Virus record (IMG/VR): IMGVR_UViG_3300008110_010375
Length of the DNA: 64,000 nt
Reading direction: 5' to 3' (one strand)
Origin: a virus
Positions 1 through 52,170 of the stretch are shown here, piece after piece. The notes under the pieces were generated by a model. That model saw nothing but the letters and a program-made list of their open reading frames with translations. It did not search any database and was not told the origin of the DNA. How positions within the stretch are numbered: position 1 is the first letter of the stretch; every line of letters starts with the position of its first letter. The translations under genes were made by a program, and so were the position numbers.

Positions 1-42
1 GGAGTCAAGGGGTCGTAGGTTCAAATCCTACTAGGCAGACCA
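1..42 (+). tRNA. 3' part of a tRNA cut by the window edge, probably tRNA-Pro
   Basis: T-arm GTAGG-TTCAAAT-CCTAC, acceptor 3' strand and CCA at 40-42; the anticodon is not fully visible. Confidence 0.8.
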
Positions 43-43
43 T

Positions 44-102
44 CGGGAGGGCGTGCTGGAAACAATCGCCGTAATTGAGGTTCAATCCTCAACTCCCGCC
101 CA
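44..102 (+). ncRNA. D-armless minimal tRNA-like RNA (59 nt)
   Basis: CGGGAG/CTCCCG acceptor stem, GGCGTG-CTGGAAA-CA(AT)CGCC hairpin, TTGAGG-TTCAAT-CCTCAA T-like arm, ends C-CCA. Confidence 0.6.
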
Positions 103-118
103 GTTTTAAGGAATCGAT

Positions 119-657: not shown

Positions 658-704
658 GTAGGCAGTACTGTTGGTCAGGGGTTCAATTCCCCTTGCCCGC
701 TCCA
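658..704 (+). ncRNA. tRNA minihelix-like element or tRNA remnant
   Basis: canonical T-arm AGGGG-TTCAATT-CCCCT, then TGCCCGC-T-CCA, partly pairing with GTAGGCA at 658-664. Confidence 0.45.
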
Positions 705-5857: not shown

Positions 5858-6047
5858 ACGATTCAAGCGCGCGTTTTGGGACTGGTTCGACTCATTAAAT
5901 AAAGAGGAGAAGAACCGGTTCTGGTACTACACCGCCGACATGTCGAAGATCTACTTTTATAATAAACACTATGCCAAAGTACTCGCGAATAAACTTGAGA
6001 GCGACAAAGTACAAGACGTTCGAGCAGGGATGGAAGTTTCTTCATAA
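5829..6047 (+). CDS. hypothetical protein
   Basis: FWDWFDSL...FWYY motif, operon packing. Confidence 0.55.
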   Translation: MSSTNLDKDERFKRAFWDWFDSLNKEEKNRFWYYTADMSKIYFYNKHYAKVLANKLESDKVQDVRAGMEVSS

Positions 6048-6402
6048 CGTCGACGTCTATCTTCTAAACGAGATCTATAAGAAGTACTGTCGCTACAAGA
6101 AGTTCGAGAGCGTCATGCCGATCTTCTACGGAGAGTACACCGACCTTCACAGCGACGTCATAGGCTACTACGAAGGTGAGCGACTCATCGCGTTCAGCCT
6201 GATAAAGATACACGATTATGAGAACGTTGAGTGCGTTCAGTTCGCTTGGGACTATGAGAACCCTAAGCTTCGCCTAGGCATAGAGAGCTTGAAGCACGAG
6301 TGCGCCCTCTACAGGGACAAGGGATTCAAGTACATGTACCTCGGTGAGGCGGCTGAATACAAGAGCACCATCGACGGCTACGAGGAGCTAGGACCTATAT
6401 AA
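5971..6402 (+). CDS. aminoacyl-tRNA-protein transferase (ATE/Bpt C-terminal, GNAT-like) domain protein
   Basis: YYEGERLIAFS...WDYENPKLRLGIESLKHE...GFKYMYLG resembles ATE_C. Confidence 0.6.
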   Translation: MPKYSRINLRATKYKTFEQGWKFLHNVDVYLLNEIYKKYCRYKKFESVMPIFYGEYTDLHSDVIGYYEGERLIAFSLIKIHDYENVECVQFAWDYENPKLRLGIESLKHECALYRDKGFKYMYLGEAAEYKSTIDGYEELGPI

Positions 6403-6734
6403 TGGACATCTATCACGTATGGGCGAACAAGGCCGGCGACATCTCCGACGACAAGTGGGTCGCGAGGATGCGATCGTTCCTAGATCACTTGGTCGAAGAG
6501 GGTAAGATGGTGTCCTATCGCATCACCCGCTGTAAGATGGGCTTCCGCAGCTTAGACATTCCAGAGTGGCACATCATGATGGAGTTCACCGACATGGCGC
6601 AGATGGACAACGCGTTCAAGCGCGTCGCGAAGCGCGAGGGTGATCTCGAGAGGAAGCACGTTTCATTCAATCAGTTCGTAGGAGACGACATCCAGCATGC
6701 CCTTTACAGGGACTGGCCGGACGAGGTCACGTAG
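6402..6734 (+). CDS. dimeric alpha-beta barrel-like protein (DUF6614-like)
   Basis: MDIYHVW..., PEWHIMMEF, ALYRDWPD, recalled from alphaproteobacteria. Confidence 0.55.
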   Translation: MDIYHVWANKAGDISDDKWVARMRSFLDHLVEEGKMVSYRITRCKMGFRSLDIPEWHIMMEFTDMAQMDNAFKRVAKREGDLERKHVSFNQFVGDDIQHALYRDWPDEVT

Positions 6735-6801
6735 CTCAGCAGGATAGAGCATCGGTTTCCTAAACCGAGGGTCGGATGTTCGAGTCATCCCGTGATCGCC
6801 A
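6725..6801 (+). tRNA. tRNA-Arg(CCT)
   Basis: GGTCACG/CGTGATC acceptor, anticodon loop TTCCTAA, CCA. Confidence 0.95.
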
Positions 6802-6802
6802 A

Positions 6803-6877
6803 GCTGCCTTAGCTCAGTGGTAGAGCACTTCATTGGTAATGAAGAGGTCGACAGTTCAATCCTGTCAGGCAGCACCA
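6803..6877 (+). tRNA. tRNA-Thr(GGT)
   Basis: GCTGCCT/AGGCAGC acceptor, anticodon loop TTGGTAA, CCA. Confidence 0.95.
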
Positions 6878-51131: not shown

Positions 51132-51789
51132 GACTTCTCTCGAGCTCCTCGCGGTCGAGCTCGAGCAGGTCAACACCGAGGCCGGCAGGTTCTATAAGAC
51201 TCCCGCCGGCCTCCTCTACCCATCCGTCACGACCGTGACCGGACTCCTCGGCCGCGCGAGCATACAGGCTTGGCGCAAGAAGGTCGGTGAGGAGAAGGCG
51301 AACGAGATCTCGCAGCAGGCGGCCAATCGCGGTACGCGCATCCATCAGTTGGCTGAAGACTACATCAACGGCGACGAGATCGACGTCAGCAAGTATACAC
51401 ACTACGACGCCGAGATGTTTGAAGACCTCAAGCAGGTGCTCGATGAATCAGTCGACAACGTCTTCATGCAGGAGACGCGGATGTACTCAGACTACGTCCG
51501 CATGGCGGGCACCGTCGACATGGTCGCGGAGTTCGAGGGCAAGCGATGCGTGGTCGACTTCAAGACTTCAAGGAAGCTGAAGCGTTCGGAGGACATCCTC
51601 AACTACTACTGCCAAGCGACCGCGTACGCGATCATGTTCGAGGAGATGACGGGCGTTCCGGTCTCTAGGTTCGCCATCATCATAGCCGTCGACGGCGAGG
51701 GAATCCAGATCTTTCGCGGAAAGAGGGACGACTACGTAGACACCCTGATGATGCTCAGGAAGCAGTACGACGACGAAAATGGCTATTGA
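51007..51789 (+). CDS. PD-(D/E)xK exonuclease (start uncertain)
   Basis: YPSVTT, RGT.IH, AGTVD, DFKTS, Q.TAY. Confidence 0.85.
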   Translation: MTSSGPGSLKSSSFEEMRTRTQGSLSFHPLTRILENRKSFTKTSLELLAVELEQVNTEAGRFYKTPAGLLYPSVTTVTGLLGRASIQAWRKKVGEEKANEISQQAANRGTRIHQLAEDYINGDEIDVSKYTHYDAEMFEDLKQVLDESVDNVFMQETRMYSDYVRMAGTVDMVAEFEGKRCVVDFKTSRKLKRSEDILNYYCQATAYAIMFEEMTGVPVSRFAIIIAVDGEGIQIFRGKRDDYVDTLMMLRKQYDDENGY

Positions 51790-51816
51790 CAAATTATTCT
51801 ACATGTGGTATAAATA
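51786..51816 (+). promoter_or_regulatory. overlapping sigma70 and late promoter for the tmRNA
   Basis: TTGACA-17-TATAAA coincides with TATAAATA at 51809-51816. Confidence 0.7.
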
Positions 51817-51821
51817 ATAAT

Positions 51822-52152
51822 GCTGATGTCGTTGACGGAAGTAGAATAAACATTCTGGACGCGGGGGCAGTACCCGCCGCCTCCACCACGGATACACTGG
51901 TCGTTGGGTGCAACAGTCCTCCTATTATAAAGAGGGTATGGCGGAAGAGACTAGCATATAACTGTTGCACTGATCAAAGCGGTGTCTCACAGTGTATCTT
52001 TGATGGGGGCGAATATTTAGGATCGACAGGTGTAGTAAAGACTGGCCCGAGACAAAAGCAACAACGTTAAATGCAAACGATAACAATGCATCTCGTTACG
52101 CCCTAGCGGCCTAACATGAGCCCGAGGGGAGCTTGGAAACAGAATCCCCTCA
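51822..52152 (+). ncRNA. ssrA: circularly permuted (two-piece) tmRNA; tag ANDNNASRYALAA; outer ends approximate
   Basis: acceptor piece ends GCGGG-GGCAGTA-CCCGC-CGCCTCC-A-CCA (51888); coding piece starts GGGGGCG (52005) with G3:U70; tag at 52073-52114. Confidence 0.93.
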
Positions 52153-52170
52153 CTTTCTTTTTGGAATCAC

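Follow-up and report, generated by a model that had tools for sequence, protein, structure and literature searches.

A family of D-armless, tRNA-like RNA genes in the tRNA arrays of uncultured T4-like phages

Introduction

The tRNA gene arrays carried by phages are usually read as helpers in codon usage or as a supply of replacements for tRNAs destroyed by host defences. Of the non-decoding RNAs encoded in such arrays, the species 1 RNA (rnaC) and species 2 RNA (rnaD) of phage T4 are the nearest parallels to the element described here. Both lie within a T4-type tRNA cluster on the tRNA strand and are excised from tRNA precursor transcripts, and rnaC has a canonical T-arm beside an acceptor-like 3' end; to our knowledge, the function of these RNAs is still unknown. 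However, at 139 and 119 nt, they differ from the element in architecture and are without an encoded CCA. When covariance model R1 of the family reported below was run on the T4 tRNA region with filters off, no significant match was obtained, the best scoring 10 bits and lying at neither rnaC nor rnaD. The likeness is best regarded as analogy, not homology.

Several other groups of RNAs share part of the design. The 12-bp stack of acceptor stem and T-arm, ending in NCCA, is what RNase P, the CCA-adding enzyme, EF-Tu and several synthetases recognise in a tRNA, and acceptor/T-arm minihelices retain the same stack but, unlike the family, are laboratory constructs. The D-armless mitochondrial tRNAs (e.g. 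metazoan mt-tRNA-Ser(AGY)) combine an acceptor, a T-arm and one more helix in ~60 nt with no D-arm, as does the family, but they keep a 7-nt anticodon loop and decode, whereas the family is viral and has a GAAA tetraloop in that place. The tRNA-like domain of tmRNA is part of an RNA of ~350 nt that includes a long connecting helix and a tag reading frame, and it has the G3:U70 alanine identity pair, whereas the element is a free-standing 59-nt unit with G3:C70, C73 and an extra helix with a GAAA tip. The mascRNA-type RNAs and the tRNA-like domain of bacterial Y RNAs (YrlA) are non-decoding tRNA mimics, of which at least mascRNA is freed by tRNA-processing enzymes, but their hosts and architectures are different. 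Finally, tRNAs with an 8/4 or 9/3 split between acceptor and T-stem, in which the 12-bp branch is kept and the boundary shifts, have been found in metagenomes (PMC5389517); these are reported as complete decoding cloverleafs, unlike the family.

The element and its surroundings

The window (the whole stretch of viral DNA analysed, 64,000 nt, IMG/VR record IMGVR_UViG_3300008110_010375) opens within a tRNA-Pro(tgg) gene, for which a truncated Rfam tRNA match was obtained at positions 1-39. The element occupies positions 44-102 on the forward strand and begins 1 nt past the CCA of this tRNA, as seen by direct reading and in identical contigs that include the upstream DNA. The features at this location are as follows.

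1-42, forward strand: 3' part of tRNA-Pro(tgg), with encoded CCA at 40-42; the window opens within this gene, and the whole gene is visible in identical contigs L001-L006
43, forward strand: 1-nt spacer (T43), equivalent to U at position -1 of the element
44-49, forward strand: 5' strand of the acceptor helix, CGGGAG, which pairs with 93-98; the same in 20 of 20 aligned variants, including ones retrieved without specifying the acceptor
50-70, forward strand: helix 1, replacing the D and anticodon arms; four pairs at the base, then a mismatched internal stretch, then U57-A64 and G58-C63 beneath the GAAA tetraloop (59-62)
71-74, forward strand: single-stranded linker GUAA, where a variable loop would be; 4-8 nt across the family in alignments
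75-92, forward strand: helix 2, the T-arm analogue; 75-80 pair with 87-92 (6 bp) around a 6-nt loop (81-86), stacked directly on the acceptor
93-98, forward strand: 3' strand of the acceptor helix, CTCCCG, which pairs with 44-49
99-102, forward strand: discriminator C73 (C99) and encoded CCA (100-102), by direct reading
103-107, forward strand: conserved 3' trailer GUUUU, the GUU of which is enriched relative to canonical array tRNAs

The six Watson-Crick pairs of the acceptor (44-49 with 93-98) and the 6-bp helix 2 form a stack of 12 bp, and a D-arm is absent. This layout was reproduced by single-sequence RNAfold (-22.7 kcal/mol; z = -2.6 against shuffles). On its own this z value is modest support, and the strong evidence beyond chance comes from the family. 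Direct reading and the fold thus bear out the anatomy given in a first-pass annotation of this DNA, namely the start 1 nt after a tRNA CCA, a 6-bp acceptor and 6-bp T-stem adding up to 12 bp, the encoded CCA and the missing D-arm. The 7-nt CTGGAAA loop drawn in the same annotation was not retained. Those letters are present in the hairpin at 50-70, but the feature conserved there across the family is the 4-nt GAAA loop (59-62), which is closed by G58-C63 and U57-A64 on a helix of 8-10 layers with an internal mismatch or bulge.

Upstream DNA was obtained from contigs carrying an identical copy of the neighbouring 82-aa gene (n = 7; all but L007 usable). The order in the identical contigs is a terminator-like hairpin, tRNA-Asn(gtt), 1 nt, tRNA-Pro(tgg), T43 and the element. 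On the other side, the element is followed by a 16-nt gap, the 82-aa ORF (119-367), tRNA-Trp (358-431), a 66-aa ORF, a tRNA fragment and a bidirectional terminator, and the ribosome-binding site of ORF 119-367 starts ~6 nt past the CCA of the element. Alignment to related arrays identified the fragment (667-704, forward strand) as the bare 3' half of tRNA-Gly(tcc), extending from the 3' strand of the anticodon stem to the CCA. The end of the 66-aa ORF has taken the place of its 5' half, and the fragment sits just before the bidirectional terminator (hairpin at ~710-735). Only five intact tRNAs were found within the 74 kb of sequence examined for this phage. The element is intact in this much reduced array, near a decayed tRNA-Gly.

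Identification of a family

A gp41-type helicase encoded 0.9 kb upstream, which places these phages near T4-like cyanophages (~65% identity), was used to retrieve 80 related viral contigs. Among the closest relatives examined with ARAGORN, a tRNA array was present at this place solely in contig L008 (88% helicase identity). L008 shares with the window copy the acceptor strands, the GUAA linker, the C-CCA end and the GUUUU trailer. Both of its inner helices are rewritten with full compensation, and helix 1 is capped by an unambiguous GAAA tetraloop.

Two pattern scans of IMG/VR, one not requiring GAAA and the other not requiring the trailer, identified 21 distinct variants (59-64 nt), and a further one of 76 nt, in contigs of uncultured T4-like phages, together with a few high-GC chance matches that lacked the architecture. 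GAAA was found in every member recovered by the pattern that did not require it. In every contig the family was located on the tRNA strand within an array of 3-24 called tRNAs, typically starting 1-7 nt past the CCA of a tRNA, and most arrays had canonical tRNAs on both sides of the element. The usual order was Asn(gtt), Thr(tgt), element, Thr(agt), Cys, Asp, Trp. The family occupies a tRNA slot in the operons of these phages, which are uncultured, T4-like and from fresh water. Five contigs were scanned whole with model R1, two of them genomes with completeness ratings of 99% and 91%, and each has a single copy; the model found no match in ten helicase-related contig fragments (21-56% complete). 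Two copies are carried by L088, the second of which looks weaker.

The 76-nt variant (L096:1291-1366) has helix 2 in tandem duplicate, giving a four-helix junction. A chimera was also found (L378:2775-2870): its 5' part comes from the element as far as the T-loop, and its 3' end from a tRNA-Cys-like gene, as if recombination between two T-loops had caused a deletion.

Covariation and invariant features

Covariance model R1 aligned 20 distinct members. In this alignment 92.7% of cells were standard pairs, compared with ~45% (37-50%) when the 3' partners were slid by 1-3 columns, both sides had changed in 10 of the 12 inner-helix pairs, and the observed pairing and covariation scores were reached by none of 500 column shuffles. 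For helix 1, seven of the eight pairs covary across the family. The first-pass annotation had proposed a tRNA mimic and not random decay, a proposal that it would have given up if homologues with compensatory changes were missing or if relatives showed a recent deletion of a normal tRNA. Compensatory changes are found in the ten pairs above, no such deletion is seen in the relatives, and all 21 diverged variants keep the armless architecture, so the mimic proposal stands.

The acceptor helix, the C73-CCA end, the 12-bp stack and the GAAA tetraloop are unchanged in all 20 aligned variants. The continuous stack of acceptor and helix 2 divides as 6/6, 7/5 or 8/4 depending on the reading, and in two variants it reaches 13 bp if a G-U closing pair is counted. 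Helix 1 has 8-10 layers and the GAAA end throughout, with closing pairs that alternate between G-C and A-U. Pairwise identity is 100% in the acceptor strands and tail and 51% in the interior. As these 16 nt are identical where the inner helices are only half identical, the acceptor and tail positions evolve far more slowly. Nine variants have a canonical 7-nt T-loop on helix 2; the rest have a loop of 5 or 6 nt (readable as 4 nt in two), with a non-canonical 6-nt loop in about half of the members. A true T-loop elbow is thus not a requirement of the family, which weakens strict mimicry of the tRNA shape.

Invariance of the acceptor

As most members were retrieved with the acceptor sequence fixed in the pattern, the invariance of the acceptor is partly built in, and the checks that were blind to it are few. 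Although partly circular, the invariance is considered to be real, and three lines argue for it. The window copy and L008 were linked by synteny, and the acceptor is common to both. A scan specifying only the helix 1 tip, the T-loop and CCA returned tRNAs, tmRNAs and family members among the matches listed, and all of these family members have the same acceptor. A metagenome scan specifying only helix 1 and the T-loop recovered four intact members, again all with the same acceptor, plus the L378 chimera. A further scan anchored on the flanks, acceptor-blind by design, had chance matches among those listed. The tRNA-Gly genes of the same contigs have many different acceptor stems.

Comparison with the tRNAs of the same arrays

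A CCA is encoded in 288 of 292 array tRNAs, but only one of the 288 canonical tRNAs that end in CCA has C73, and this is an aberrant tRNA-Val call. All tRNA-Pro of the arrays have C1:G72, a pair seen in only three other calls. The element has C73 with U or A at position -1, and C1:G72 without A73. Its acceptor-stem features match no complete known identity set, whether G3:U70 (Ala), G-1:C73 (His) or A73 with C1:G72 (bacterial Pro), and its acceptor matches no tRNA of the arrays. A derivation from tRNA-Gly was considered and set aside. The 3' end resembles that of tRNA-Gly without U73, yet the stem is absent from array tRNA-Gly, and the resemblance is suggestive at most.

Most family members have U at position -1, as do 193 of the 298 canonical tRNAs in these arrays. 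On the 3' side, the trailer begins with GUU in 16 of 21 variants compared with 10 of 298 canonical array tRNAs (Fisher p = 2e-16). The GUU trailer might base-pair with the 3' side of the GAAA loop, or it might be a site that an endonuclease prefers, and no covariation supporting trailer-loop pairing was seen among the 21 variants.

Searches for known relatives

No Rfam 15 family, YrlA included, matched the window copy at E up to 10, and none matched six further members at E up to 1. The tRNA family RF00005 gave no match at 44-102 (E up to 10), whereas three neighbouring tRNAs scored 48-73 bits, and likewise none in the six other members (E up to 1). ARAGORN called 0 of 20 members in bacterial mode and 0 of 20 with -mt and -mtmam on the sense strand, while calling the neighbours. 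When compared with a canonical tRNA, the element has the 12-bp stack, the discriminator and the CCA, but not the D-arm cloverleaf or a 7-nt anticodon loop with U33.

Among bacteria and archaea, a pattern scan of 185,579 genomes (one per species) found only 17 chance matches, all without the architecture. Model R1 found nothing in HTVC008M, DLP_6, phiM12, CcrColossus and vB_OspM_OC, of which three are T4-like and three infect Alphaproteobacteria. Among GenBank phages, only tRNA-sized matches to this DNA were obtained. The blastn matches were partial and T-arm-like, and the best two (BUCT-ZZ01 and BDU-MI-1) were examined as candidates and are not members. Full-text searches of the literature found no description of the family. 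The family is new, belongs with the non-decoding tRNA-like small RNAs of phage tRNA clusters, and is absent from Rfam.

Two other kinds of unusual tRNA-like gene were observed. Synechococcus phage BUCT-ZZ01 (GenBank accession number ON615601.1; L386:1290-1545) carries two unannotated tRNA-like genes. An insert interrupts each of them after the anticodon-stem region, ~35 nt of sequence is common to both inserts, and ARAGORN calls neither gene. Another tRNA-like gene, which has C1:G72 and A73, a long extra arm and what may be a UGG anticodon, was found in L139 (3768-3860, reverse strand) and also in L204, L210 and L225, again with no ARAGORN call.

Proposed maturation and role

It is very likely that positions 44-102 of the window are a real, selected and structured RNA gene. 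Its U at -1, 12-bp stack and 3' NCCA are compatible with an RNase P substrate, and these features, the encoded CCA and the position in a tRNA slot suggest, at the level of sequence, that the element is processed. It would be co-transcribed with the neighbouring tRNAs, RNase P would cut before C44, guided by the 12-bp stack and the CCA, and the 3' end would be trimmed to the CCA. The predicted product is a stable, roughly L-shaped RNA unable to pair with a codon, whose acceptor stem, C73 and CCA would be read by a sequence-specific partner. Taken as a whole, this chain, in which the element undergoes tRNA-like maturation and yields an L-shaped mimic that does not decode and whose fixed acceptor end is read by a specific putative partner, is judged somewhat probable.

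The reasoning behind the last step is as follows. As helix 1 ends in a GAAA tetraloop and no anticodon loop is present, the RNA cannot decode, and any function must then use the acceptor end or the overall shape. The acceptor end does not vary whereas the rest of the RNA covaries freely, from which a sequence-specific reader is inferred; the unvarying acceptor and GAAA tip, like the unusual C73, would point to one. The RNA may be a dedicated non-ribosomal substrate that is charged or otherwise modified at its CCA end, which is a plausible though tentative reading, or a decoy that competes with tRNAs for an enzyme or toxin active on their 3' ends, which is possible but rather doubtful. The aminoacyl carrier suggested in the first-pass annotation is a possible role as well. 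It is also conceivable, if somewhat speculative, that the element is a natural free-standing 'top-half' tRNA with its own identity set (C1:G72, the GGG/CCC run, C73-CCA, and the GAAA tip at anticodon distance), serving as a non-decoding private carrier or a high-affinity decoy. Such a carrier could be charged or modified at the CCA end, and such a decoy could soak up a host enzyme or an immune toxin with tRNA 3' ends as its target.

A conserved non-decoding array member with a frozen acceptor and exact tRNA dimensions would represent a second, non-translational use of the tRNA scaffold by phages, which may also be relevant to the stable RNAs encoded, with no explanation so far, in the T4 tRNA cluster. 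It also provides annotators with a model for a gene missed by every tRNA finder tried here, in a compact, testable object of ~60 nt.

Alternative explanations

The element could be a processing or punctuation unit only, a tRNA-shaped handle at which RNase P and 3' nucleases cut the polycistronic transcript, with the released RNA inert in trans. The 12-bp stack plus CCA is what RNase P needs, the window copy lies between tRNA-Pro and a protein gene with a ribosome-binding site close by, and an ORF is directly downstream in several relatives too. However, the flanking canonical tRNAs already provide cleavage sites in most arrays, the downstream ORFs are unrelated to one another, and a handle has no need for an invariant acceptor sequence, C73 or an invariant GAAA tip, making this explanation unlikely. 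Less likely again is a cis-acting element with its functional 3' end past the CCA, for example a pseudoknot between the GAAA loop and the GUUU trailer that controls 3' processing or the downstream gene. The strong enrichment of the GUU trailer would fit such an element, as would the AAAC of the loop region, which could pair with GUUU, but the pairing is only 4 bp, the G is missing in five variants, the loop-closing base and the trailer do not covary, and the next tRNA starts 5-6 nt on in many arrays, so that the trailer would be removed.

Arrays of these phages do decay, as the tRNA-Gly(tcc) half at 667-704 shows, and both the L378 chimera and the weaker-looking second copy in L088 would fit a drifting tRNA pseudogene from which the D-arm was deleted. 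This is largely refuted by the 21 variants with the same armless architecture and constant 12-bp stack, by the single copy in each contig scanned whole, and by the compensatory changes in both inner helices, which are not expected of drift; a pseudogene is highly improbable. A decoy for host anticodon nucleases, the leading example offered in the first-pass annotation, is improbable to a similar degree. Phage tRNA arrays do counter such nucleases, by supplying replacement tRNAs, but here a compact GNRA tetraloop ends helix 1, leaving no anticodon loop to bind or cut. The least probable of all is a genuine decoding D-armless tRNA for serine with anticodon GGA. The window copy, taken alone, allows CTGGAAA to be drawn as a 7-nt loop closed by G55-C63, but comparison with the family refutes this reading: the loop of the relatives is unambiguously a GAAA tetraloop with closing pairs that covary from G-C to A-U, ARAGORN called none of the 20 members even in the mitochondrial mode that allows armless tRNAs, and there was no Rfam tRNA match (E up to 10).

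Host and partner candidates

All 11 distinct tRNA-His genes of these phages (e.g. L088:2960-3033) have G1:U72 and A73 with no paired G-1, as delimited by ARAGORN, which we take to be the atypical form of tRNA-His from a clade of Alphaproteobacteria. A circularly permuted, alpha-type tmRNA was found in the window (51782-52154, forward strand; RF01849, 110.5 bits; RF04321, 95.4 bits; both above the Rfam threshold), for which ARAGORN made no call, and an alpha-type two-piece tmRNA is also above the Rfam threshold in the near-complete relatives G001 and G002. The type of tRNA-His and the alpha-type tmRNA point to hosts that are probably alphaproteobacterial. A GGAAACA motif that the element shares with the terminal hairpin of the window tmRNA was dismissed as chance, as it is not conserved in the tmRNAs of G001 and G002.

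Mimicry of a host tRNA-Pro was considered and rejected: a pattern for tRNA-Pro with the acceptor of the element at its start matched 28 of 301 alphaproteobacterial genomes, and all 12 matches inspected were coding sequence and not tRNA. A common downstream gene was likewise rejected as a partner, the ORFs that follow the element being unrelated to one another. Thg1, which could add G-1, was not found. No CCA-adding enzyme was found in the two near-complete genomes that bear the element; as the CCA is moreover encoded in the genome, the earlier suggestion that the RNA is a substrate for such an enzyme is unsupported.

An ATE_C-like gene is present in two of five contigs, and the G002 homologue also adjoins a tRNA-Arg(cct). 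It was discarded as a partner as it is missing from G001, an element-bearing genome rated 99% complete, and is thus not tied to the element. In the window, this region (5971-6877, forward strand) encodes a protein of 143 aa that matches Pfam ATE_C (27.1 bits; cut-off 25), a DUF6614 protein, tRNA-Arg(cct) and tRNA-Thr(ggt). ORF 6402-6734 extends 10 nt into the next tRNA gene (tRNA-Arg, 6725-6734), and the same extension of 10 nt was observed for ORF 119-367 downstream of the element (tRNA-Trp, 358-367).
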